A stretch of DNA of 63,820 bases, filler included, from 6 parts of 6 records of this genome joined end to end with filler, not necessarily neighbours in it; one strand, 5' to 3'. Positions 17,055-52,098 are shown, counted from the first letter of the whole stretch. Notes: generated by a model from the letters alone, not told the origin. Translations and numbers: made by a program.

Positions 17055-18578
17055 AAGGGCGACTATTTCGGCCCCTTCGCCTCGGCCGGTGCGGTGAACC
17101 GCACGATCACGGCCCTGCAGCGCGCCTTCCTGATCCGGAACTGCACGGATGCGACCTTCGCCAGCCGGACCCGGCCCTGCCTGCAATATCAAATCAAGCG
17201 CTGCGCCGCGCCCTGCGTCGATTATGTCAGCAAGGAAGACTATGCCGAGCTGATCGAGCAGGCGAAGGCGTTCCTGACCGGCTCCAGCAGGAAGATCTCT
17301 CAGCAGCTCGCCGAGCGCATGCAGGAGGCGAGCGACGCGCTCGACTTCGAGAGCGCAGCCCGGTACCGGGACCGGATCAGGGCGCTGGCCCATGTCCAGT
17401 CGCATCAGGACATCAATGTCGAAGGCGTCGAGGATGCTGACGTGATGGCGCTGCATGGCGAAGGCGGCTCCGCCTGCATCCAGGTGTTCTTCTTCCGGGG
17501 CGGCAGCAACTACGGCAACCGGGCTTATTTCCCGAGCCACGACAAGAGCATGGAGCCGGGAGAAATCCTCGCCGCTTTCGTCGGCCAGTTCTACGACAAC
17601 AAGCCGCCGCCCAAGCTGGTTCTGGTCAGCCACGACATGCCGGAACAGGAGCTGATCGCCGAGGCCCTCGGGACCAAGGCCGAACGCAGGGTCGAAGTAT
17701 TGCGCCCGCAGCGCGGCTCCAAACGCAAGCTGATGGAGCACGCACTTTCAAACGCCAAGGAAGCCCATGCAAGACGGCTGGCCGAAAGCGCGTCCCAGCG
17801 GCGCCTGCTGGACGGCCTCGCCGAGGCACTGGATCTGGACGGCCCGCCGGAGCGGATCGAGGTCTATGACAACAGCCACATCCAGGGCACCAACTCCATC
17901 GGCGCCATGATCGTTGCCGGTCCCGAGGGGCTGATGAAAAACGCCTACCGCAAATTCAACATCCGCAATGTGGTCCCGGCGGACACGCCTTTGCCGGAGT
18001 CGGTCGAGCCTGACGAGAACGGCGATGTGCCGGTTCAGGCCGGTGACGATTACGCCATGATGCGGCAGGTACTGACCCGGCGGTTCGGCCGGGCCCTGAA
18101 GGAAGACCCCGACAAAAGCTCCGGCAACTGGCCGGATCTGGTGCTGATTGATGGCGGCCAGGGCCAGTACACAGCCGTGCGGGAGGTGTTCGACGAGCTC
18201 GGGATCGAGGATGTCGCCCTTGTCGCCATCGCCAAGGGGCCAGACAGGGATGCCGGGCGGGAACGGTTCTTCTCGGGCAAGCGCGCTCCCTACTCCCTGC
18301 CGATCAACGATCCGGTGCTGTATTTCCTGCAGCGCCTGCGGGACGAAGCCCACCGCTTCGCCATCGAGACACACCGGGCAAAACGGACCAAAGCCATAGG
18401 CCAATCGAAGATCGACGAAGTGCCGGGGATCGGCGCCAAGCGCAAGAAGGCCCTGCTGCACCATTTCGGCTCCGCCAGGGAAGTTTCCCGCGCCGGGCTG
18501 CAGGATCTCGAGGCGGTCGACGGAATTAGCAAAACTGTAGCCAAAAAAATCTATGATTTCTTCCATGATGAGGGCTGA
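17055..18578 (+). CDS. uvrC: Excinuclease ABC subunit C, 5'-partial
   Basis: [53 protein letters not shown], HhH motif GIGAKR. Confidence 0.97.
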
Positions 18579-39745: not shown

Positions 39746-39773
39746 GGGGGTTCAAGTCCCTCCTCCGCTACCA
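39746..39773 (+). tRNA. 3' end of a tRNA, probably alphaproteobacterial elongator tRNA-Met; gene or att duplication, cut by the contig edge
   Basis: GGGGG-TTCAAGT-CCCTC T-arm plus CTCCGCT-A-CCA; isotype is from recalled similarity, the anticodon is not visible. Confidence 0.75.
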
Positions 39774-39841
39774 TTTTTCTCTCATAAAAACAGTAAGTTA
39801 GATTTTCGCCCTGCCTCGGCGAGCCGCCATTTTTGGCTCTT

Positions 39842-39860
39842 GGGGACAATTTAGGGACAG
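39842..39860. repeat. Tandem GGGACA repeats, putative integrase arm-binding sites beside the tRNA-Met end
   Basis: GGGGACAATTTAGGGACAG about 70 nt downstream of the tRNA CCA. Confidence 0.5.
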
Positions 39861-39996
39861 TAAGAACAAGAAAGCTTCAATGCGTTACCGCAAAACAGAA
39901 ATGAGTTTGTAGAAGAAGAATCCATGCCGCTTGCAATGCCCCAACCCGAGGGCAATACCGTGTGAGGTACGGCTCTTAAAATTGAAAGAGGTGATG

Positions 39997-40587
39997 ATGG
40001 CCGAGTTCGTCCAGCTTCGAATTTCACTGAACAACATTGAGCCCGAAATCTGGCGACGCATCATCGTGCCCGGAAATCTGAACCTACATGAACTGCATGG
40101 CCTTCTTCAGGGGGCAATGGGATGGGAAAACTACCACCTTTATGGCTATACGATTGCAGACAAGCGTTACGAGCTGCCAGAGCGCAGTGCGGACGGCCCA
40201 GAAGAAGGCAGCCTGGATGCGCGTGAGGTGCGGCTAGATAAAACCGTGCGCGTCGGCGAGTCGATTTTATATCGCTATGATTTTGGCGACGGTTGGACAC
40301 ATACCGTCACCCGTGAACGCCTGACGCGGCCAATTCCAAACGTTTTTTTCGTCGGCTTGTGCCTCGAAGGTGCAAACGCTTGCCCGCCGGAAGATGTTGG
40401 CGGTGAGCCCGGCTACGAACGCCACTTGACCGATTTAAAGAAGGGAAAGGGCGACGCATACAGAAATGCTATTTCATGGCGAGGCGCATTTGACCCGAAG
40501 CTATTCAGTCCGACACAAGCGACCCAAGCGATGTCGATGTTCGCTGTGATGATGAATTTGCGGCGCGAGGGGTTTGACTGGCTTTGA
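39997..40587 (+). CDS. Plasmid pRiA4b ORF-3 family protein
   Basis: PEIWRRI.VP, LH..LQ.AMGWENYHLY, Y.YDFGDGW.H, CPPEDVGG..GY. Confidence 0.9.
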   Translation: MAEFVQLRISLNNIEPEIWRRIIVPGNLNLHELHGLLQGAMGWENYHLYGYTIADKRYELPERSADGPEEGSLDAREVRLDKTVRVGESILYRYDFGDGWTHTVTRERLTRPIPNVFFVGLCLEGANACPPEDVGGEPGYERHLTDLKKGKGDAYRNAISWRGAFDPKLFSPTQATQAMSMFAVMMNLRREGFDWL

Positions 40588-40612
40588 TCTAATTTGACTG
40601 GCTTTGATCTAA
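40573..40612 (+). repeat. Perfect 20-bp tandem duplication
   Basis: TTTGACTGGCTTTGATCTAA twice, spanning the stop codon of the pRiA4b ORF. Confidence 0.9.
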
Positions 40613-40636
40613 CAAGAACGTTCCGCTCCCTTTGCT

Positions 40637-41563
40637 TTAGATCGCTTTTTCGCTGAGCTTTCGCTCAAGTTGTTCCACAAGTTGAGACCGGGCGTGCGAA
40701 GACATTTTGTCTAAGTTGAGCTGGCGCCACTGGACTGCCGGAAGCTCCGGAACATGCTCGATCCCTAGCAGTGACCAGTCTGGTGACCCTTTCTCAAAAC
40801 CAATCAGAAATGCTTTGTGGTCCTCTGGCATTTCTCCGACAACAGCGTTGATCAACGATTCTCTCGCATTGAGGAGTTCATCCAGATCAATCGGTTCTTT
40901 GGTCATGCCTGCGAAACCACGTTCAAATTCCTGGCCAATATCTTTTCTGGTAGGCCCGATCACTTCATGCATCGGTCGGTCATGGCTCAGCAGATAGACG
41001 ATGAAGGCTCGCCGCAAATCGTCGGTAATGCCTTCATTGGCAAGCAGGTCTCGGACGTCGAATAAGTCTCTTGGGTGTTGGCGATCAAGCGCGGCGACGA
41101 CCTTGCCACCATATAGGTCGGCAAAAGAGACCACCTGCATTTCGGCATAGCCGAAAACATCCTCAACAGCAGGCATCACGGTGCGTTCTTCCGCCTCGAA
41201 CACGCAGCCGCGTAGCACTGGGGTTACCTCGATTTTGATTTGCACGCCGTTACCGCGTGCCAACAGCTTTGTGACGGCACCTTCTTTGTTGGGAGAGGCG
41301 GGTACAATATCTTCCGCCGGAGATCCCGAACCCGATGCAACAGCGATACGCTTCATTGCGGCATCTATCGCTTCGAGCGAATCCGAGCGCGATTGTACGG
41401 GTAAATAAGTGAGGTCTATATCCACCGAGAGGCGCGGCATGTCACGGACGAACAGATTGATTGCTGTTCCGCCTTTTAGGGCAAAGCACGGCTCGTCCGC
41501 GACAAATGGCAGGACGCGTACCAGTAGCTCCACCTGACGCCGATATTGTTCACTATAGGGCAT
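40637..41563 (-). CDS. abiEii: AbiEii/AbiGii nucleotidyltransferase toxin (type IV TA)
   Basis: FALKGGTAINLF, PRLSVDIDL, KIEV, GKVVAALDRQHPRDLFD; start at MPYSEQ overlapping the antitoxin stop. Confidence 0.92.
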   Translation of the reverse strand: MPYSEQYRRQVELLVRVLPFVADEPCFALKGGTAINLFVRDMPRLSVDIDLTYLPVQSRSDSLEAIDAAMKRIAVASGSGSPAEDIVPASPNKEGAVTKLLARGNGVQIKIEVTPVLRGCVFEAEERTVMPAVEDVFGYAEMQVVSFADLYGGKVVAALDRQHPRDLFDVRDLLANEGITDDLRRAFIVYLLSHDRPMHEVIGPTRKDIGQEFERGFAGMTKEPIDLDELLNARESLINAVVGEMPEDHKAFLIGFEKGSPDWSLLGIEHVPELPAVQWRQLNLDKMSSHARSQLVEQLERKLSEKAI

Positions 41564-42401
41564 CGAGATCCCCCGGTACTGTGATCCGGTAGACGGGATC
41601 GAATTTACCGCCACGCACCAACATGCGGTCGCCGGTCCCCAGATCGAAGTCTTTCGGGTCGACACGATTGCGCCATCGCGGTTTGTGGCGATCAGCAAAG
41701 TAGAAAAACAGTCGCTTGACCTTGACGCTCTTGCAATCCGCGAGAAGCTTATTCAGGCGGTTGGGGCTGAGATTGAGCAATCCCTCGGCCAGCTTATCGA
41801 CCATATGAAAGCTTTCATTGTTGGGTAGCTCGTCCAGAAGCTCAAAATATGCGCGTTCTGGAGCAGAGACGGTCATGGGCCAATCCCATTGGCCCCACGG
41901 CATCACTTTGAAGCTGTTGCCGTGAATGGGATCGTTGCTCCGAACGTCACTAGTTTGTGTGTTCCAATTCAAACTTGTCAGCGCACGTGTGATCGGTTGG
42001 TTTTTGAATAGGCGGGTGCTCTTGTGCAGCACAAATTTCTGCGGGATGCTCAGCTTATTCATCCAGCCAGGCAGCTTCTCCTCTCCGTAGAGGTGAACCT
42101 CTTTTTGTTCGTGCGATAGAAAATGCGCGTAGCCCTGAAGTTCCAATGCTGTGCGCCCACCCACAATCAGGGGAATCTGCATGATGTCTTGCAGAGAGAT
42201 AATCACCTGCTCCCATCGTAGCGAGCCTCGTGGTCTGCGAAATACGCCCCTTGCAGGCTGTTCCAGCCAGCCTGATTTCAGGTATTGCGCTCGCAAAGAT
42301 CGCTCATAACCATGCTTGGTCAGCCAACGCGCTGATACCAGCAGGCCCTCAGGCACCTCGTGCTCTAAACGCTTTAATTTTGACAAATTTCGTTCATTCA
42401 T
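41553..42401 (-). CDS. abiEi: AbiEi family antitoxin / transcriptional regulator
   Basis: N-terminal wHTH (Y.KSGWL...RGVF), GGRTALELQGYAH, SAPERA..E, C.SVKVKRLF; upstream of the toxin. Confidence 0.9.
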   Translation of the reverse strand: MNERNLSKLKRLEHEVPEGLLVSARWLTKHGYERSLRAQYLKSGWLEQPARGVFRRPRGSLRWEQVIISLQDIMQIPLIVGGRTALELQGYAHFLSHEQKEVHLYGEEKLPGWMNKLSIPQKFVLHKSTRLFKNQPITRALTSLNWNTQTSDVRSNDPIHGNSFKVMPWGQWDWPMTVSAPERAYFELLDELPNNESFHMVDKLAEGLLNLSPNRLNKLLADCKSVKVKRLFFYFADRHKPRWRNRVDPKDFDLGTGDRMLVRGGKFDPVYRITVPGDLDAL

Positions 42402-42470
42402 ACTGAACAAAATAACATTTTTTCAAAGTGACGGCAATGCCAGCTTTAAAAATGATTAAATTTGTTCAGT
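42402..42470. promoter_or_regulatory. Long imperfect inverted repeat over the abiE promoter, putative AbiEi operator
   Basis: ACTGAACAAAATAACATTTTTTCAAAG versus CTTTAAAAATGATTAAATTTGTTCAGT; the outer 10 bp pair perfectly. Confidence 0.7.
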
Positions 42471-42578
42471 TTCACTGTGCAAAGCGCTTCTGGTGTCAAA
42501 GTGACGGGTTGGGTGATGTCAGAGTGAATGGAACGGTCAACACATCAAATGGGGCGCCTGAGCGACGGATGAGCTATT

Positions 42579-43709
42579 CTATGATGACTCATTCTTGAAA
42601 ACCGCTTTGTTCATGCGCTCTACGACGCTGATCGTATGCGGCTCGCTGAGGTGGGCATAACGCTTCACCATTTGTAGCGTCTTATGTCCGAGAACCTCGG
42701 CAATTTCAGATGGTGTCGCGCCGTTCATGGCTAGGTACGACGCGGCAGAGTGTCTTAGGTCGTGAAAGCGGAAGTCTTCAATGTTGGCTTTTGCAAGAGC
42801 GATGGCCCAGTCGTTGTCAATGTAGACTGGCTTTGCGCCATCTGGACGAGGGAAGACGTAGCCTGTTGAGTTTGGAGCCGATGCTCGTAGCTGCGTCAGA
42901 ACCTTGTGCGCTAAGCTGACGATAGGGATGGAGCGGCGCTCGTCGTTCTTGGTTTCGTGTAAGCGAATGACGTTGCGCTTCAGGTCAACCTCAGGCCAAC
43001 GGAGGTTTAGCATTTCACCCCGTCGTGCACCCGTTGAAAGAGTGACGATAACAAGTGGATACAAGAGCTTGTTAGAGCTCTCACGGCAGGCGCTCAGGAG
43101 CCGCTGTCGTTCGTCATCAGATAGAAACCTTACCCGTCCTCTTGGCTCTGACGGACGCCTCACTTTTCGAACGGGATTGTCGTTTACCCAACCCCACTCG
43201 TTGACGGCGTGGGTGTACATGACTGACAGGCTCGCAAGGTAGCGATTAACTGTCGCCGGAGATTTTGCCCGTCTCGCGTTGCCGTCAGTATCGCGGAGTT
43301 CTTTGCCATTAGAGTCAGTTGTCGGTGTGGTCAGCAATTCATCGCGGAGCGCTGCAATTCGAGAGGGTGTTATGTCTGCGAGGATGTAAGGGCCTAGTTT
43401 AAGCTTCCACCAAGTCAGGTGGCATTTTATGGCCCTTGCTGCTGTTGGTTTTTTATGTCGGAAGGGAGCGACTTTGGAGAGGTATTGGTCAACCAGTTCC
43501 CCAAATGTACGTCGCTTTTCCTCAACGGTTTTGAAGTAGCGGTTTTCACGCAAGGCTGCTTCAGTTTGTGTCGCCCAGGTGCGTGCATCAACTTTCCGCT
43601 CGAACGTCGCGGTTTGCGTTGGGTAACCTTTAAGACGGATCACGACTTTATAGTGTGTTTTCCCATCTTTTGTCGTTCTTTCTTTAATCCAAGCCAATAA
43701 AAATACCAA
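42579..43709 (-). CDS. Tyrosine recombinase / integrase
   Basis: Catalytic R (TGARRGE), K (ETKN), HDLRH, LGH, RYAH; N-terminal arm-binding region; the start may be TTG 43697. Confidence 0.95.
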   Translation of the reverse strand: MVFLLAWIKERTTKDGKTHYKVVIRLKGYPTQTATFERKVDARTWATQTEAALRENRYFKTVEEKRRTFGELVDQYLSKVAPFRHKKPTAARAIKCHLTWWKLKLGPYILADITPSRIAALRDELLTTPTTDSNGKELRDTDGNARRAKSPATVNRYLASLSVMYTHAVNEWGWVNDNPVRKVRRPSEPRGRVRFLSDDERQRLLSACRESSNKLLYPLVIVTLSTGARRGEMLNLRWPEVDLKRNVIRLHETKNDERRSIPIVSLAHKVLTQLRASAPNSTGYVFPRPDGAKPVYIDNDWAIALAKANIEDFRFHDLRHSAASYLAMNGATPSEIAEVLGHKTLQMVKRYAHLSEPHTISVVERMNKAVFKNESS

Positions 43710-43763
43710 TAATTATTTTTCATATACTGTATTTATATAAGTATTTCGGGGGCTTTAGGCAAT

Positions 43764-43994
43764 AAAAATGGTGCAAAAATGGTGCAGTAAAATGTAAAAA
43801 TTGGCTTTATTTAACATAATTATTAAAAATCACTATTAAGTAATATATTGAAATTATTGATATTCATAAAATATCACATCAGGGAATAAAGGCGTGTGCG
43901 GGCTTAAAATCCTTCCAGTGTGGGTTCGACTCCCACCGTGGACACCAGCTTTCGCGATGCTCGACGGAAAAATGGTGCAGAAATGGTGCAGCAA
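43764..43994. mobile_element. attP-like site: tRNA-Leu core flanked on both sides by tandem AAATGGTGCA arm repeats
   Basis: AAAAATGGTGCAAAAATGGTGCAG (43764-43787) and AAAAATGGTGCAGAAATGGTGCAG (43968-43991) around the tRNA fragment; AT-rich left arm. Confidence 0.75.
43903..43947 (+). pseudogene. 3' half of tRNA-Leu(TAA), short variable loop type; att core
   Basis: CT-TAA-AA loop, TCCTT, CCAGT, GTGGG-TTCGACT-CCCAC, CGTGGAC-A-CCA; no complementary 5' acceptor strand or D-arm upstream. Confidence 0.8.
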
Positions 43995-44134
43995 CAATCA
44001 GGCATTCACCATAAAGCTCATAAATACTTCCATCAAACTTGATCCCAGATACCGTCGCGGGAAGTGGAAAATTTCTTTTCATGATAAATGTAAATGCAAT
44101 GATTCAAGAATATCCTATTCCACCCTTAGGTGGC

Positions 44135-47100
44135 CTAACTGTATTTGCGCGCCATAGTGCGTAAACGAATCAGGTTTGCGTCTCTTGCGAGCTCGGGAGC
44201 GGAAGCTTCAATAGCATCAAGGCAAGCAGTCAAATCTTTAGAATACCAGGGGCTGTCACCAATTATGCTGGCCAGTAAGGTAAGTGCCTCTTCAGGGAAC
44301 GCCGTAGCGAGTTCCTGTTCGCCGAGTTTTTGCAACACCAGCCCGGAAAATCGCACATGCACAAACCAGCCATTGAATAGCTGAACAGCGTCTGGGAAAT
44401 TTTGTCCGGCAGAGACGCATACTTGAGCTAGCTGCTCACTGAGTTCTGGCGATCTCAGTTCATCCTGCTGCGGCCAAATGTTCCGCCAGAATGGGAGTAC
44501 ATGGTTGACCCAATAGTCATGGCGCTGGTCGTCTGTGCCGCTGAGTGCGTTGTTCATGGCCAAAGCGGCTTGTGGCAAGGCGTCGGCGGTAAGATGCGAG
44601 AATGCTTGGCGGTATGCCGGAGCCTTATCGGAGGAGATTGGGTCAAGAGCGGCGAAAGTTAGAAACTGAATGTATATTTTACCAAGATTTTCTAGCGCCG
44701 TGACGTGTGATGCAGTCTCCAAAAAATCTGGCTCAATCTCCTCGATCAACGGCGTTACCAGTCGGGGAGCCCTCATGAAGCCTTGCCACATACGAGACGC
44801 CTCCTCCGGGTCGCTGTCCCAATGCATGCGGGGAAGAAGATTCTCCCTGGTCCATTCAGGAGCAACGACGAAAAGACGCGCTAGATTGGATGCGAGGACC
44901 ACTCGACCGTGACGGAACCGAGGTTCGTGTTCGTTGCTTACACGCGTGAACACTGGCCGTAAATCGTCGGGGAGGCCTTGGCCGTTCGTTAAGCCGCGAG
45001 ATTCCCAAAGAATAATCAGGGCCTCTGTGGTCTTGCCAATGGGATGATTAATCGCTGCAGTGACTGCATCTCGTTTCTCCTGACCATAACCTATCTGCAG
45101 CTCCAGGATTCGCTCGCAGATCCCAATAAAGGTAGCGGCTCGTTCGTTCACAGATCTTGCAACATCCGTAAGCCAGAAAGAGAGCGCATGATCAACGCTT
45201 TCTAGGGAAGGATCTGGTAAAGACGCGACCGTATCCGCCATTTCTTCCCAAGACGGCCGCGCGTGCTCGCGGTCCCCCCATGCATAAAGGGCAGTTTCCC
45301 ATCTAGTCTCCGGCCATTCTCCTTTATCTGCGAGGCGTTTTAAAGCCGCATAAGAGCGCTGAGGCTCTTTCTTACAAATGTCTCGCCAGTCATCGTCTTG
45401 CCGATGATGGCGGGTCGCGACAGGACGGCGTAGCCACTCGGTAAGTTGGTCAAGGTCTCTAGGAGCGCGCTCTCTTTTGAACTCGGATTCAAAACCTGGA
45501 TCTCCCGTGCCGTAGGTCCAAATGGAAAACTCTTCTCTTTCGTCGTCTGCGAACTGCCAGTCAGGGAATTTTGTCCGGATGGTCTCTAAATTTGTTGCCG
45601 CGGCCTCGCCCAGAGGAGTTGCGAACCGCTCCAATTGACCCAGACGTTTGAAGATTTCCTTCTGAGCGATATTGTCCCAGTCCTCCTCAGATAGGTCGTC
45701 GACATACATATTCCTGGGCGGGCCAAGTAAGATAGCAGCCTCTATGTGCTCCCGATCCGCTTGCCCGAGATGTTGGGCCCGTGTTGCGAGAAGCCGCATT
45801 GTTTCCCTGAGGGTATCATTCGCCCAAAGCCACCATGCTTCGTCTGCAATTAGCCAGTTCACCCATTGCGCATTCTCAATGCTCTCGACTCTGCTCGCGG
45901 CAAAATAGGCCAAACGCTTGAATGTAGGATACTCGATTGATTGCCACTCTGTGGCAATTGAAGCGGCCCGATGACTGTCTTGAGCACAAACACCAATCCA
46001 GGCGTCGCGTAGTAGCCGGATTAGAATGGTCCAGTCCCGCTGATGGTGATCGCGGTTTTGCCAATGATCTTCGATTGAAGGGATATCCCAAGATGAACGG
46101 TCGCCTCGGTGGCTTGCAATTTCAACAGATGCCTGCATATCCAATGAGTCGTGCAGAAGTGACTGAAGGGCCGGAAGCATGGAAATGAGTACCTTTCGCC
46201 ACGCGTCAGTTTCAGGCAGGTCTGTCAACAAACTCATTACGTCGTCAGTCGATAAGCACGGTCTAAAGTCAATCGCGGGCTTCGGCGTTTTGTCGGTCTC
46301 GCCATCGCTTGAAAAATCAAAAGAGCTAACGCTTCGCTCGATCTGAAGCCTTGGAGAGAGCATTTCCAAAAGCTCATCGCGGAGAGAAAAGGTCAGCCCC
46401 TCCCGTTCAAAGCGGCGACGCCAGGTGACAGCGTTAAAATTCTGCAATGAGTTAACTATACGGCCTCTCAAGAATAGGCCCCAAACGGCGCGCATTCTCA
46501 TGTCTGGAATGGAATTTGGTGCTGCAGCGCGCATCGCCTCTTTGTCGTCGAGACGATCATCTGTCTCTAGGTCCGCAATGCGGTCCAGAGCCCATTGTAT
46601 TTGGTTGGCAAGCACTGGGTGCAATTCGCCACCTTGGTTGGCGAGCCAGAGAGCCAGCGCTGGGTCGTTCAGGTGCCGAGAAACCCATCGACACAGATGA
46701 TGTAACACGGGATCTAGCGATGAGCTTTCGTGGGCCGCTGCGGCGAGCCTCATGCGAGGAGCTAATTTGTATGGACTGGGTCTGTCGATCAGGCTGAACG
46801 TGGCCGGATGTTGTTCATCCAGAGTGGGTGTAACCCCGAATAATGGCAGGTCATGCTCCGCAAAAAGCCTTTCATCGAATGCGAATAGCCAGTCCAGCGA
46901 AGGCACGGGATCTAGATCCGCGAATCGTCGGGCAGGCAAACCGGAGGGGTCTGATAACGCCCATAACAATCGACCAACGAAATCGTCTTGATCGGTACTG
47001 GCTTGGGGAATGGAGAGCGCCGTTTCGCTAACGATGCGTTCCTTACCTTGAATGCCATCCTTGTATGTCTCTGCCCATGCCCAGAGCGTTTCATGTAAAG

Positions 47101-47947
47101 CGGAGTGATCGTTTGTATTGCCTGTGGGGATTTCGTAGAGGATCGGAACTACACCCTTGGCGCTCCATTCTTCATAATTGTCGGTCATTTTCTCTGGAGA
47201 GGAACCGGCAAATGCATAAGCTTGGGGAGGCATCTCCCCAAGTCTCCGGTCGGCTGCTAGCGCGTCCATCAAGTAACGAAGAACCGGATCCTCTATGCTA
47301 TATCCCACAAAACATACGACGAAGTTCATGAAGAGATTAACGGTAAACTCGGCTGCCCATCCCTCGCTCAGATATGCGAGGCCAAAATCTCCACTTGTCA
47401 GGACGAGCTCGTTCAAGCGCTCAGCGTCGTTGATTTCCGGTAACAGGCCATGAAGGTAGACGAGCCCATTCCATCTGCTTTTCTTCGCTAGAGGCAACTG
47501 AGGGGCGGCAAAGTGCCGGATGGTCTCACGATCCCCCTCGGTAACATGCACGAACAACCTATCGAAGTTTGTTGTGACAACCCTTAGTGCTCCGTGCCGG
47601 TCCCGACCCAGTCGTATGAGCGATTCATGGGTCCTAGCCGCATTCGGTGGGTCAAGATTTGGCTCAAGCGAGCTCAACAAGGCTGGCCGGACAGCAGCGC
47701 GGCCTCCCGGGTATCGTCTCTCTAGTTGATCCAACGCGCTATCAAAGCGATTGGCTTTTAGATCCCGTTGCTCCAAAGATCCAGGTCGGTAGCCAAGACG
47801 GCCATAAAGGCGTTCGACGAGCCCTTTGAAACTTGGAAGGTCCGCAGGATATGAGATCCCTGCACCGCAAAAGAATACGACTTTTCCTTCTTCATGCGAC
47901 TGTAGCAACGAGTCAGGGATATTTGGTCCATTGCGAATAAATTGCAT
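44135..47947 (-). CDS. dsr1: Defence-associated sirtuin Dsr1-like (SIR2 NADase domain plus long helical C-terminus)
   Basis: MQFI.NGP.IP..LLQ.HEEG.VVFFCGAGISYPA.LP, TTNFD, YLHG, LVLTSGDFGLAYL, FVGYS..DP; 1270 aa, matching recalled Dsr1 size and N-terminus. Confidence 0.85.
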   Translation of the reverse strand: MQFIRNGPNIPDSLLQSHEEGKVVFFCGAGISYPADLPSFKGLVERLYGRLGYRPGSLEQRDLKANRFDSALDQLERRYPGGRAAVRPALLSSLEPNLDPPNAARTHESLIRLGRDRHGALRVVTTNFDRLFVHVTEGDRETIRHFAAPQLPLAKKSRWNGLVYLHGLLPEINDAERLNELVLTSGDFGLAYLSEGWAAEFTVNLFMNFVVCFVGYSIEDPVLRYLMDALAADRRLGEMPPQAYAFAGSSPEKMTDNYEEWSAKGVVPILYEIPTGNTNDHSALHETLWAWAETYKDGIQGKERIVSETALSIPQASTDQDDFVGRLLWALSDPSGLPARRFADLDPVPSLDWLFAFDERLFAEHDLPLFGVTPTLDEQHPATFSLIDRPSPYKLAPRMRLAAAAHESSSLDPVLHHLCRWVSRHLNDPALALWLANQGGELHPVLANQIQWALDRIADLETDDRLDDKEAMRAAAPNSIPDMRMRAVWGLFLRGRIVNSLQNFNAVTWRRRFEREGLTFSLRDELLEMLSPRLQIERSVSSFDFSSDGETDKTPKPAIDFRPCLSTDDVMSLLTDLPETDAWRKVLISMLPALQSLLHDSLDMQASVEIASHRGDRSSWDIPSIEDHWQNRDHHQRDWTILIRLLRDAWIGVCAQDSHRAASIATEWQSIEYPTFKRLAYFAASRVESIENAQWVNWLIADEAWWLWANDTLRETMRLLATRAQHLGQADREHIEAAILLGPPRNMYVDDLSEEDWDNIAQKEIFKRLGQLERFATPLGEAAATNLETIRTKFPDWQFADDEREEFSIWTYGTGDPGFESEFKRERAPRDLDQLTEWLRRPVATRHHRQDDDWRDICKKEPQRSYAALKRLADKGEWPETRWETALYAWGDREHARPSWEEMADTVASLPDPSLESVDHALSFWLTDVARSVNERAATFIGICERILELQIGYGQEKRDAVTAAINHPIGKTTEALIILWESRGLTNGQGLPDDLRPVFTRVSNEHEPRFRHGRVVLASNLARLFVVAPEWTRENLLPRMHWDSDPEEASRMWQGFMRAPRLVTPLIEEIEPDFLETASHVTALENLGKIYIQFLTFAALDPISSDKAPAYRQAFSHLTADALPQAALAMNNALSGTDDQRHDYWVNHVLPFWRNIWPQQDELRSPELSEQLAQVCVSAGQNFPDAVQLFNGWFVHVRFSGLVLQKLGEQELATAFPEEALTLLASIIGDSPWYSKDLTACLDAIEASAPELARDANLIRLRTMARKYS

Positions 47948-48332
47948 GCGATATCCCTACTTGGTTTGAGCGGGTGTCGAATACTCTGTTGTGGGTAGAG
48001 ATTTATTCGAAAATTTCAAAATGTCTTCTCTTTGTTTCTCCTTCCCCTAAATGCGGGATGTTCACAAGTGTGATGGGAGTTGGCTTCTTTTCTCCTTCGG
48101 TCGTTAGAGCAATAAATCATAGAGCCACCACGCCTTTCACACACCTGATACCAATTTCCCGTTCGGGCCTTCAAAAAGCGTGTCATCGCTCTCAATTTGC
48201 GCCCGCAAATCTCAATAGTCAGCCAAAGCCCAGTTCGCAGATGCGAGATGAGAGGGCTTTAAACCGCAGAATTCTGCCCCCATAATAATTGTATACAACT
48301 TATTAGTGTAAACAAAATTGGGGAGGGTGGAA

Positions 48333-48870: not shown

Positions 48871-50391
48871 ATGTCATTATTACGTTTTTTATGGCGGTTC
48901 TATAAAGTCGCCTCTCTCTACCTGCCGCTGATTGTCGGATGTATGTTCGTGGCGCTTGGTGCGCTTGGCGGCGATTGGCTGCTGCATCCTGCCCTATGGG
49001 GCGTTCTGGGACTGATTGCTCTCATGGGGGCGCTGTTCCTGCGCCACTCGGTCAATCTCCCGGCCCGCGATACGCACGGCTCAGCATCATTTGCCAATTC
49101 TCGCGAGATTTCGCGCAGCGGGCTCTTTAAGCGCGGCGGCGTGATTATTGGCAAGTGGCGTGGTCGGTATCTGCGCTTTGCCCGCGAGGGGCATTTGCTC
49201 ACCTTTGCGCCAACGCGCTCCGGTAAGGGCGTGGGTTGCGTGATCCCAAACCTACTCGATCACCGGGGCTCGGTCGTGGTCTCGGACATCAAGGGCGAAA
49301 ACTACCGGGTCACCGCCCCCTGGCGCGCCGGGTTTAGCCGCGTGCTCGCTATTGCGCCCTTTAGTCGCGATATCGCGGGCGCCTGCTTTAATCCTTTGGA
49401 CTATATCCGGACGAGCCAGCCCGAAGACGTGGACGACGCGGCGATGATTGCTGATCTGTTGGTTGTCCCAAAGGGCCAGGACACATTCTGGGACAGTGAG
49501 GCCCAGAACCTGATCGCAGCGCTCTTGCTCTTTGCGGCCCACGATCTATCGCCTGAGGAGCGAAATCTTCATCACGTCTGGTCACTGCTTATGCGGGACC
49601 GGGATGAGTTTGATGAGGTGATTGCCGATATGCGCGCAAGCGATCATCAAGCTATCCGGCGTGCGGGCGACGGGTTCTCCCAGAAGGAAGAACGGGAGCG
49701 CTCTGCGGTGATCTCGACCGCGCAAACCCATATGAAAATCTGGAAGAGCCCGCTGCTGGCGGAAGCGACCAAACACTCGGACTTTGCACTCGAAGATATC
49801 AAGCGCGGCTGCCTCTCTCTCTACATCGTCATTCCGCCGGAACTGCTTGGGGTCTACCGGCCCTTCATGCGGTTGATGGTTGGGCTTGCGGCCTCGGCCA
49901 TGACGCGGGTTTCCGCGCTACCGGAAAAGCGCGTGCTGTTTCTGCTTGATGAGGTGGCCGCACTCGGGCGCATGTCGCCAATTGAGACGGGCATAAGCTA
50001 TCTCGCCGGGTACGGCGTGAGCTTGTGGCTGTTCTTCCAGGACTTGGATCAGCTCCAGAAGACCTATCCGAAGTGGCGCTCCGTCATCGCAAACTGCTCG
50101 GTACGTCAGGCCTTCGGTGTGTCCGACTATCAAACCGCAAAAGAACTCTCCGACATGATGGGCCAGCGCACCGTGCCTGCGATGAGCAAAGGGCTCTCGC
50201 GGGATTGGTTGGTGCCGGTGCCGGACGGCGTAAGCCGTCATATGGCCGAAACGGGCCGCCCGCTGATGACGCCGGACGAGATCATGACCATGCCGGAGGA
50301 CCGGCAGCTGATCTTCGTCCAGGCACTTAGGCCAATCCTGGCACGGAAAATCCGCTACTTTAGCGAGTGGATGTATCGCTTTCGGGCTTAG
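48871..50391 (+). CDS. Type IV coupling protein, VirD4/TraG family
   Basis: Two N-terminal TMs, HGSA.FA, APTRSGKG Walker A, DIKGEN, FNPLD, FLLDE Walker B, RPLMTPDE. Confidence 0.93.
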   Translation: MSLLRFLWRFYKVASLYLPLIVGCMFVALGALGGDWLLHPALWGVLGLIALMGALFLRHSVNLPARDTHGSASFANSREISRSGLFKRGGVIIGKWRGRYLRFAREGHLLTFAPTRSGKGVGCVIPNLLDHRGSVVVSDIKGENYRVTAPWRAGFSRVLAIAPFSRDIAGACFNPLDYIRTSQPEDVDDAAMIADLLVVPKGQDTFWDSEAQNLIAALLLFAAHDLSPEERNLHHVWSLLMRDRDEFDEVIADMRASDHQAIRRAGDGFSQKEERERSAVISTAQTHMKIWKSPLLAEATKHSDFALEDIKRGCLSLYIVIPPELLGVYRPFMRLMVGLAASAMTRVSALPEKRVLFLLDEVAALGRMSPIETGISYLAGYGVSLWLFFQDLDQLQKTYPKWRSVIANCSVRQAFGVSDYQTAKELSDMMGQRTVPAMSKGLSRDWLVPVPDGVSRHMAETGRPLMTPDEIMTMPEDRQLIFVQALRPILARKIRYFSEWMYRFRA

Positions 50392-50409
50392 TGGGGCAGG
50401 GCCAGAGGC

Positions 50410-52098
50410 ATGCGGTTTAAAATCCCGGCACGCCAGCCATCAAACTTTCGCGCATCGGCACGTTATCTCGCCGGGCGCAGTAAGGGCGTGACGCCTGAGC
50501 GGGTCCAATGGGTCTTTGCCCAAAACTTGCAAACGACCGATCCGGACGCCGCTGCTGCCATCATGGATGCGACCGCTGCGCGCTCAACCCGCTGCCGCAC
50601 GCCTGCCTACCATTTTATTCTGACCTTTGATCCAAAGGATGCGAAAGCGAAGAAGATCAGCCCGGACATTATGCGGGAGATTGCTGAGGAAACGATCTCG
50701 CGCATGGGGTTAAAGGAGTACCAGGCGCTGGTCTATGCCCATCGGGATACCGATCACCCGCATATGCACTTTCTGGTCAACCGGGTGCATCCGGTTGAGA
50801 GCAGGGCTTACAGTCGTCATGAGGACGGTAAACGCCTGACCGCACTCTGCCGCGACATTGCCAGAGAGCGGGGCCTCAATATCCCCAATGACCGCACCCG
50901 TGTGCGCGAGAACGAGCGCAACACCGGCCTCGATGATATTCCGCCGATGCCGACAGACGGGGACTATTGGCAGGCCAAAAACGGAGAGCGAGAGCCTGAG
51001 GCTGCTTTTCCCAAGGCCAAAGCAAATGAAATGCGCAAAGAGTTGCATGCGCTCTTTGGCAAGGCGACGTCATGGGAGCTGCTGTCCGACAGCCTAATGG
51101 AACGCGGCTATTACCTGCGCGAAAAGGGCCAGGGCATGGTGATCTCGGACGGTCTTGGTTATGTGAAACTGTCTGGCATGGGGCGCGGCATCCGCGCGAA
51201 GGGGCTTGAGAAACGCTTTGGGGAGAGCTTCAAGGCATTCGAGGTCCGGATGGCGGATAAGCTCAAGCGGCAGATTGATCGGGCACAGCCGCCGCTCGAT
51301 CTGCCGCCAGATATGAGTGACCAAGAACGCCGCCGCGCTGAAAAGCTCCATCGCTTGAAAGAGCGTGCTGCGTTTGAGCGCAAGGATCGTGTCCCGGCGC
51401 TGGATGAGGCCGACATTGAATTCCGCTACTGGCATATGCTGGAGCAGGGCCTGCGCCGCAAGGAACGCGATGTGGCGTACTGGAAGCGCCGTCATGGGGC
51501 TTTGGACGTGACCGTCGCCCGACGAGGCAAGCGCGCGCGTGATCAGAAGGTGGCTTTATCGAAGGAGCTGGCCAAGACCTATCGCGATCCTGAAAAGGCC
51601 ATGTCTCTCTGGAACAAGCTTGAGAAGGCTTACGGTGCCCGGGCCGCAACCAGTATGGTGCGGAAAGAGCCGTCCATCATCGGACGTTTGCAGGGTATCG
51701 ATGTGCTAGGCCGCAAGTCCGGCAAGCGAGAGAAGGCGGAAGCCACGCTCAAAGACCTCACCAAGCGCCGCCGCCAATGGAAATATGCCCGCGACGGCCT
51801 TGCTGATACCCAGGCCAAGCGAGAGCAGGCACTCCATAATCTCAACATCGCCCAGCGCGATCTCAACATGATGTATTTGGCCGTCGGCTCACCGGAACGG
51901 TTCCGGAAGATCGTCCTTGAGAAGATCAAACGCCGTGCCCAGGCACTCAATCGCGTGACCGCCAAGATGATCGAGCAATCGAACCTCACCGACGAGCGCA
52001 AACGGCAACTCACCAAAGCCTGGCGCCAACATCGCGAGCGTCAGCGGGAGAGAAGGCGAAAGCAGGGATTCGATATTCATAATGATTTTCATTTATAG
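50410..52098 (+). CDS. Relaxase (MOBP/VirD2-like) with BID-like region and basic C-terminal tail
   Basis: Motif I Tyr (ARYL), YHFILTFDP, AHRDTDHPHMHFLVNRVHP; Arg-rich end RQHRERQRERRRKQG. Confidence 0.9.
   Translation: MRFKIPARQPSNFRASARYLAGRSKGVTPERVQWVFAQNLQTTDPDAAAAIMDATAARSTRCRTPAYHFILTFDPKDAKAKKISPDIMREIAEETISRMGLKEYQALVYAHRDTDHPHMHFLVNRVHPVESRAYSRHEDGKRLTALCRDIARERGLNIPNDRTRVRENERNTGLDDIPPMPTDGDYWQAKNGEREPEAAFPKAKANEMRKELHALFGKATSWELLSDSLMERGYYLREKGQGMVISDGLGYVKLSGMGRGIRAKGLEKRFGESFKAFEVRMADKLKRQIDRAQPPLDLPPDMSDQERRRAEKLHRLKERAAFERKDRVPALDEADIEFRYWHMLEQGLRRKERDVAYWKRRHGALDVTVARRGKRARDQKVALSKELAKTYRDPEKAMSLWNKLEKAYGARAATSMVRKEPSIIGRLQGIDVLGRKSGKREKAEATLKDLTKRRRQWKYARDGLADTQAKREQALHNLNIAQRDLNMMYLAVGSPERFRKIVLEKIKRRAQALNRVTAKMIEQSNLTDERKRQLTKAWRQHRERQRERRRKQGFDIHNDFHL

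Follow-up and report, generated by a model that had tools for sequence, protein, structure and literature searches.

A mobilizable defence island with an intact tRNA(UAA)-type attachment site inside it and a tRNA-Met-type attachment system at its edge

Results

An intact attachment site lies upstream of a tyrosine integrase gene

The stretch of DNA analysed here (the window) comprises 63,820 bases and consists of six contigs joined by N44-TTAATTAATTAA-N44 spacers. Its fifth contig (39746-52429, 12,684 bp; all positions are those of the window) harbors a mobile element with defence and mobilization genes, a tyrosine integrase gene (int1) and, upstream of int1, the 3' half of a tRNA gene with tandem repeats on either side. 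This site is referred to as attP1, the element-borne form of an attachment site in which a core is flanked by P and P' arms. A second attachment system, related to tRNA-Met, occupies the left edge of the contig. The features that carry the argument are as follows.

43764..43787, + strand: P arm of attP1, two exact copies of AAATGGTGCA with an 11-nucleotide (nt) period, ~115-140 nt upstream of the core
43903..43947, + strand: core of attP1, the 3' half of a class I tRNA(UAA) from anticodon loop to CCA, matching the native gene L092 at 43 of 45 nt
43968..43991, + strand: P' arm of attP1, two exact copies of AAATGGTGCA, the first one 23 nt after the CCA
42579..43709, - strand: int1, a tyrosine integrase of 376 amino acids (aa) with an intact frame (PF00589, E 1e-28, residues 195-356)
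39746..39773, + strand: last 28 nt (T arm, 3' strand of the acceptor stem, CCA) of an elongator tRNA-Met, with one mismatch to locus L011; core of attL2 or attP2, the junction or element form of the second system
39843..39862, + strand: arm-type GGGACA repeats in tandem (GGGGACAATTTAGGGACAG), interpreted as the tRNA-Met system's P' arm, with homologous pairs in relatives

The core reads CTTAAAATCCTTCCAGTGTGGGTTCGACTCCCACCGTGGACACCA and represents the 3' 45 nt of a tRNA, beginning with the anticodon loop CTTAAAA. Because its close match to the last 45 nt of the 77-nt native gene gives way to 7 of 32 identical positions in the 32 nt upstream, tRNA homology begins at the anticodon loop; ARAGORN detected no complete tRNA in the window. 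The exact copies of AAATGGTGCA at 43766, 43777, 43970 and 43981, all on the plus strand, form two tandem pairs with the same period, and the sole further exact copy in the 63.8 kb lies at 18457 on the minus strand. The original prediction had placed the 3' half of a tRNA with a TAA anticodon upstream of the integrase and tandem repeats on both sides of it, and both were borne out. With both arm sets flanking the core, the Leu-type (UAA) site is unrecombined, that is, an intact attP, as had likewise been proposed. Rfam returned only weak T-arm matches to the tmRNA model on this contig; tmRNA as the source of the half was dropped, as its acceptor end misfits and a true tRNA match was found.

A misassembly at 43903-43947, raised as a possible artefact, was checked against contigs assembled at k=31 from public runs of three studies (X6, X7, X10 and X1). 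All four cross the tRNA half in one piece, so the core is not a misassembly. X6 and X7 may be the window's own source; X1 is an aquatic metagenome, and element parts without cover in X1 were not counted as evidence.

The int1 gene is transcribed away from the tRNA half. It has 7987 homologues, the nearest one 98% identical and encoded on a 25.9-kb contig, and aligns over 98% of its length. Its translation contains ...ARRGE..., ...HDLRHS... and ...GHKTLQMVKRYAH..., to which we assign, by eye, the candidate catalytic residues of the R-H-R-Y set. The AAATGGTGCA repeats are predicted arm sites bound by int1.

The core derives from a class I tRNA(UAA)

Bacterial tRNA-Leu belongs to class II and carries a long variable arm. 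The half has no such arm, hence it does not stem from a standard bacterial tRNA-Leu. The notion that it stems from no real tRNA at all, a long variable arm being expected, was refuted by complete class I tRNA(UAA) genes. The 19-mer CTTAAAATCCTTCCAGTGT, with at most one mismatch, occurs in seven of 401 alphaproteobacterial genomes, and three of those seven (G241, G368 and G070) encode complete 77-nt class I tRNAs with the anticodon UAA, which score 61-64 bits on the Rfam tRNA model and are called Leu(taa) by ARAGORN. All three belong to one alphaproteobacterial order, from which six genomes were examined. A metagenome scan returned at least 123 stretches, and 76 loci were examined (L096-L171); among the matches listed, 62 of 81 lay within complete tRNA calls of 73-77 nt. 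These tRNAs (L090-L092; L096-L171) have a 5-nt variable loop and a 3-bp D stem. The predicted identity as tRNA-Leu(TAA) thus agrees with ARAGORN's label, but the molecule is a 73-77-nt class I tRNA rather than the standard long-arm tRNA-Leu; with bacterial tRNA-Leu being class II, its amino-acid identity is uncertain.

This tRNA gene also serves another integrase family (27% identity to int1), whose tandem arms read AATGCATAC. One such locus (L125) presents a full tRNA and a P' pair at one end and integrase, P pair and half at the other, with attL and attR 9.4 kb apart, while both arm pairs are present in a second (L171), the attP form of that family. Native tRNA(UAA) genes, together with an integrase family integrated there, mark a real and commonly used chromosomal target site (attB). 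The anticipated matching tRNA in the host or its relatives was not found in the hosts examined, but it is present in other alphaproteobacteria and in metagenomes.

Three loci (L087-L089, from G306, G198 and G329) were considered as attL hybrids of the int1 family and rejected, as they feature a different adjoining integrase and an intron-bearing tRNA-Leu; tblastn with int1 at 1e-5 gave no hit against them. In G306 (L093 18200-20000, G306:C1), the anticodon loop of a class II tRNA-Leu(UAA) is split by a group I intron (Rfam Intron_gpI, 57 bits). Immediately upstream of this gene are an unrelated integrase with TGCACAT tandem repeats and a 77-nt tRNA(UAA)-like gene, class II-like in its 5' half and class I in its 3' half; similar loci exist in G198 and G329.

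A tRNA-Met-type system marks the left edge of the contig

A Met-like tRNA 3' end with GGGACA repeats of its own had been predicted at the left contig edge, and this was confirmed: the first 28 nt correspond to the 3' end of the L011 elongator tRNA-Met, and cmscan recovered the T arm. The repeats of GGGGACAATTTAGGGACAG begin 70 nt downstream of the tRNA-Met end. Homologous pairs are found at this position behind the tRNA-Met or tRNA-fMet of L011, L075 and Ciceribacter, and recur beside the second integrase at attR. In the assembly graph, the leftmost 30-mer forms a node at ~2.4x element depth, from which a 10,283-nt contig as deep as the element leads off as an alternative continuation (in X6, 59.1 for the alternative continuation against 60.9 for the element). 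At the opposite end, the last 30 nt are common to a 99-nt contig at ~2x depth (X6, X7 and X10); it is thus a repeat, rather than the end of the element, that cuts the contig off.

52400..52429, no strand assigned: right contig end, a short repeat; the element goes on past the contig

Relatives from Roseibium and Ciceribacter carry both systems

The int1 family was surveyed in the best 80 of 475 relatives, of which 73 with at least 450 nt upstream of the integrase were assessed and seven dropped. In most members, the integrase gene follows a complete same-strand tRNA gene at a distance of ~150-400 bp. A script found arm pairs on both sides of a core at six of the 73 loci; a seventh two-sided locus, L002, was missed by it, its repeats being imperfect. 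The geometry of attP1 recurs in L001, L002, L003, L047 and L075, and the arm sequence tracks the integrase: TGGTGCA in the window, L001 and L002, TGGTGTA in L003 and GGGACA with Met-type integrases.

By integrase, the closest genome relatives are L001 of Roseibium aggregatum (63% identity) and L002 of Ciceribacter azotifigens (61%). In both, the integrase is preceded by an antiparallel tRNA(UAA) half, which tandem TTGGTGCAA-type pairs flank on either side, and each half matches the native tRNA L090 at 43 of 45 positions (counted by eye). The T stem stays paired through compensated changes—GTGGG/CCCAC in the window and L002, GTCGG/CCGAC in L001—which fits selection for a working tRNA.

Both relatives also carry the second system. 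Past the 3' end of the integrase gene, each contig runs on for 1.8-2.6 kb and ends in a tRNA-fMet oriented with its 3' end towards the element; next to this tRNA comes TTTAGGGACAAATTAGGGACAG in Ciceribacter and a pair of GGCACA repeats in Roseibium. As the 5' half of the tRNA-fMet is present in both, the end in question is an attL. In Ciceribacter, a contig of 22,506 bp holds the whole element, from a near-full tRNA-fMet to an fMet half, in the order tRNA-fMet and GGGACA pair; helix-turn-helix protein and HipA; int1 and attP1; type IV secretion system (T4SS) coupling protein (T4CP), NikA and relaxase; type I restriction-modification; second tyrosine integrase (int2); GGGACA pair; and the fMet 3' half, with which the contig ends. 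Its attL and attR share a direct repeat of 47 nt with two mismatches. The Ciceribacter int2 (405 aa) adjoins attR; it shares 40% identity with the int1 of the same element and 42% with that of the window. The relaxases of window and Ciceribacter are 44% identical, relating the two elements as wholes. No T4SS genes were found among 16 open reading frames (ORFs) scanned in the 22.5-kb Ciceribacter element. Defence cargo in the relatives comprises type I restriction-modification, a KwaB-like protein and HipA, and the genes on either side of attP1 differ among the three relatives. The Roseibium element contig ends at the 3' end of an IS66-family-like transposase gene (L085 1-110, the start of G002:C70; by eye), for which reason the far end of that element was not judged.

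Parvibaculum islands and other loci pair a used site with a spare one

Two Parvibaculum genomes (G003 and G404) contain ~35 kb islands at the window's own type of tRNA-Met. Each starts with a GGCGGAG-type tRNA-Met and TGGGGACACTTTGGGGACAG, continues with a spare integrase and its intact attP and ~30 kb of other genes, and closes with an int2-like gene (56% identical to Ciceribacter int2), a pair of GGGCACA or GGGGACA repeats and a tRNA-Met half that borders on host DNA. As in Ciceribacter, this far-end integrase shares ~40% identity with int1. G003 has a Phe half as its spare core, G404 a Met-like half. In G003, attL and attR share a perfect 52-nt repeat. Across the integrated relatives, a regenerated tRNA stands at attL and a displaced half at attR, and the DNA between attL2 and attR2 is contiguous, not dispersed. 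A mirror case is L046 (G241), in which one integrase adjoins a true attR (P pair only, then a host gene) and another, int2-like and located ~3.4 kb away, retains an intact attP of the fMet type.

Further variants were seen in two lineages. In Ferrovibrio (L047 13036-14400; L217, G405:C2), ~3 kb separate a spare Met-type attP, whose arms read GGGACA, from an int2-like integrase that is followed by a GGGGACA pair and the 3' half of a tRNA-Arg(ACG); with Met-type and Arg cores next to alike arms, similar arm motifs evidently serve integrases with different tRNA cores. In a relative from a Halomonas metagenome-assembled genome (L003 9290-11188), the attP is intact and combines a tRNA-Asn half with arms of AAATGGTGTA. 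Opposite the integrase, across this site, lie pieces of a second int1-like N-terminus, and the contig ends in a tRNA-fMet 3' half that immediately follows the stop codon of the integrase.

Genomes with a spare site mostly lack its cognate tRNA. No counterpart of the spare core was found elsewhere in the Ciceribacter and Roseibium genomes (G001 and G002), nor any cognate tRNA for the spare core in G404 and G405, and G003 has only a diverged tRNA-Phe that shares the anticodon loop with the spare core and differs in the stems. As for the window, its core is unbranched at k=31 in the X6 and X7 contigs, which means that these samples yielded no other assembled stretch with 31 nt in common with it.

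Cargo, mobilization genes and a metagenomic variant

The remaining genes identify the contig as a mobilizable defence element, as had been predicted.

39931..40587, + strand: PRiA4_ORF3-family protein, small cargo (Pfam PF07929, E 1e-50; no PADLOC match)
40637..42410, - strand: AbiE abortive-infection / type IV toxin-antitoxin pair (Pfam, PADLOC)
40637-41698, - strand: AbiEii (PADLOC, 414 bits)
41553-42410, - strand: AbiEi (PADLOC, 308 bits)
44135..47947, - strand: DSR1, a defence-associated sirtuin of 1270 aa (PADLOC Dsr1, 1452 bits, full length; Pfam SIR2_2)
48871..52098, + strand: mobilization module (Pfam)
48871-50391, + strand: T4CP (Pfam)
50410-52098, + strand: MobA/VirD2-type relaxase (Pfam)

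The defence systems recognised by PADLOC on the contig are thus AbiEi/AbiEii and full-length Dsr1. Among the 10 ORFs scanned in the 12.7 kb, the window's element being incomplete, no mating-pair (T4SS) families were found.

The cargo slot occupied by DSR1 abuts attP1 and holds different DNA in X1. This relative is ~99.9% identical to the window at 39763-43484 (three differences), while its mobilization region is 94-95% identical. On the X1 contig that bridges the core, four of the five listed differences fall at 43954-43968, just past the CCA, and from 19 nt beyond the P' arm onward 44010-48155, including DSR1, is replaced by 1510 other letters.

GC content is ~52% in the element's contig and ~60% in the window's first four contigs, and megablast of the whole contig against a plasmid collection gave no match. 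The sixth contig (52530-63820) encodes eukaryote-type proteins without visible introns: adaptin N-terminal and beta2-appendage, SET domain, NIF phosphatase, AFG1-like ATPase and aromatic amino acid lyase.

Discussion

We consider it probable that the contig belongs to a family of islands that carry two paralogous lambda-type integrase/attP modules of different tRNA specificity, module 2 being in use and module 1 spare, and that it comprises the left two thirds or so of such an integrative mobilizable defence island. Module 2 (GGGACA arms, tRNA-Met core) would hold the island at the 3' end of an elongator tRNA-Met, its integrase, as judged from relatives, lying past the contig end. Module 1—int1 together with the P pair, tRNA(UAA) 3' half and P' pair of attP1—is complete and unrecombined. 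We propose that the present host apparently has no cognate tRNA(UAA) gene, which would leave int1 without an attB and the site in its attP form. After transfer to a host with the 77-nt tRNA(UAA), int1 could integrate the island there, module 1 serving as a second key; a crossover in the anticodon loop would join the half carried by the element to the 5' half of the host gene, leaving a complete tRNA. Module 1 is probably still active. Among the three explanations that the original prediction had put forward for an unrecombined site, an element parked at tRNA-Met by another integrase with an unused second site is the best supported, on the evidence of Ciceribacter and the two Parvibaculum islands.

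Several points weigh against this interpretation. The k=31 graph around the left node fits attL plus attR and attP plus attB equally; with only 28 nt of tRNA-Met on the contig, attL2 is not separable from attP2. A second integrase with GGGACA arms, as predicted, is present in relatives, but the window's contig ends before reaching one. As that integrase and attR lie past the contig end, integration of the window copy at tRNA-Met is something we infer. No excisionase was recognised among the small ORFs (Pfam, E 0.05), save a chance-level DUF7903 match. In the six genomes of the order with the native tRNA, no attL1 (tRNA(UAA) followed by TGGTGYA) was found, nor was any int1 homologue of more than 30% identity near the 81 metagenome matches, among the matches listed; an int1-type module in use at tRNA(UAA) was found in neither set. 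In G241, a spare fMet-type attP coexists with a host tRNA-fMet, hence a missing attB is not the whole explanation everywhere. Finally, the eukaryote-type proteins of the sixth contig show the bin to combine DNA of bacterial and eukaryotic origin, which leaves the element's host uncertain.

Three other explanations were weighed against an island with one used and one spare module. Tandem-island junctions look like attP, and island arrays are common at tRNA genes; attP1 could accordingly be the P arm of one sister island and the P' arm of another, inserted at the same tRNA, around a displaced core, and the cargo does differ on its two sides. In such an array, however, inner and outer sites would be of one type, whereas the internal core here is a tRNA(UAA) half with TGGTGCA arms and the flank a tRNA-Met with GGGACA arms, and the left part of the Ciceribacter element would pair a GGGACA P' arm with a TGGTGCA P arm and thus be incoherent. 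This proposal, also part of the original prediction, deserves hardly any weight. An excised or plasmid-like circle, free and with both attP1 and attP2 intact, which the assembler broke inside attP2, would explain why the contig starts within a shared tRNA-Met core that the chromosomal tRNA-Met repeats; a 30-mer node at ~2.4x depth with an equal-depth alternative continuation would likewise be seen if a circle coexisted with an empty attB, and the plasmid pPDL2, which carries int and attP according to the available part of its description (PMC3516476), provides a precedent. All four judgeable relatives (Ciceribacter, Roseibium and the two Parvibaculum islands), however, are integrated: in Ciceribacter and Roseibium the element is contiguous with a tRNA 5' half, and in Parvibaculum both attL and attR are embedded in large contigs. 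Moreover, the equal depth of element and alternative flank argues against a multicopy element, Pfam revealed no replication gene in the 12.7 kb, and the right end stops at a different, two-copy repeat rather than at a Met half. We therefore regard a circle as unlikely.

Somewhat less probable still is that int1 and attP1 are the functionless, not yet decayed leftover of a fusion of two elements. The want of any int1-type module found in use, hosts that have no cognate tRNA and the failure to recognise an excisionase are all what such a relic would predict. Yet the int1 frame is intact and aligns over nearly its full length, four of four arm copies are exact, and the core remains at 43 of 45 positions identical to a live tRNA, with T-stem pairing kept. 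The module has also been retained in three genera while the int1 genes diverged to 61-63% identity, and in X1 identity falls from ~99.9% to 94-95% between 43629 and 43954, as if exchange had occurred at the site.

A more speculative extension, which we hold to be possible but doubtful, is that the spare int-attP module is a working recombination hub. In a host with both tRNAs, the island would be recombined at both and split over two chromosomal regions, as a miniature mobilizable counterpart of a tripartite integrative and conjugative element (ICE). Between co-resident islands, attP1 x attP1 exchange may swap whole modules: the integrase with the small cargo and the tRNA-Met junction on one side, the defence cargo with the mobilization genes on the other. 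The identity step at the core in X1 is the basis for reading it as a present or past exchange point; the replacement of DSR1 close behind the P' arm in X1 and the differing genes around attP1 in the three relatives are further hints of module exchange.

The individual parts are known already: heterobivalent tyrosine integrases, an attP with a tRNA 3' half, and integrative and mobilizable elements (IMEs) with defence cargo. As in phage lambda-type systems, a tyrosine recombinase gene lies beside the site, with tandem arm repeats on both sides of the core; as in tRNA-targeting islands, the attP core is a tRNA 3' half running from the anticodon loop to the CCA. The departure from both is that attP1 lies unrecombined inside an island that a second integrase, by analogy with the relatives, holds at a different tRNA. 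Islands at tRNA genes are usually read as one integrase and one site, with extra integrases put down to nesting or tandem arrays, and accretion arrays are a further type of composite island beside nested ones. The nested composite island CGI48/GI21 of Shewanella putrefaciens (PMC8978831) is alike in having two integrases within one island boundary and, with HipAB in the Ciceribacter relative as the counterpart, a toxin-antitoxin system by the integrase; in contrast to such nested composites, as far as the accessible account of CGI48/GI21 describes them, the inner site here is an intact attP with both arms and not attL plus attR.

SGI1-type IMEs resemble the present island in their small size, their integrase, relaxase and mobilization genes without a full T4SS, their adaptive cargo and their site-specific integration; in the part of the literature available to us, they have one integrase and one att system, and secondary sites are used by the same integrase (PMC2297512). 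The tripartite ICE3 of Mesorhizobium (ICEMcSym1271), a large self-transmissible symbiosis ICE, encodes IntS, IntG and IntM with three attP sites; at rest, all sites are recombined and the element occupies three separate chromosomal regions, its assembly being controlled by three excisionases (available sections of PMC5882170). Shared with ICE3 is the presence of several tyrosine integrases on one element, each with its own attP/attB pair, the second integrase being known here from relatives. Unlike ICE3, as there described, the relatives are contiguous islands of 22-35 kb with relaxase and T4CP only, one idle attP and no recognised excisionase. The Gordonia phages Bowser and Oregano likewise are temperate elements with two tyrosine integrase genes; they are phages, however, and the available text of their announcements is silent on a second attP or its state. 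Searching the open-access literature by title and abstract, we found no description of an island with an idle second attP, which is not to say that none has been published.

Small mobilizable defence islands in Alphaproteobacteria thus appear to include ones with two intact integrase/attP modules for different tRNAs, one in use and the other idle, usually without a target in the current host. This extends the spare-attP design to tyrosine integrases with a second, different specificity. For annotation, it implies that neither an excised circle nor a misassembly has to be invoked to account for an attP-like site within a chromosome. A functional idle module would let the island settle in a wider range of hosts, and it would offer a simple route for shuffling defence cargo.

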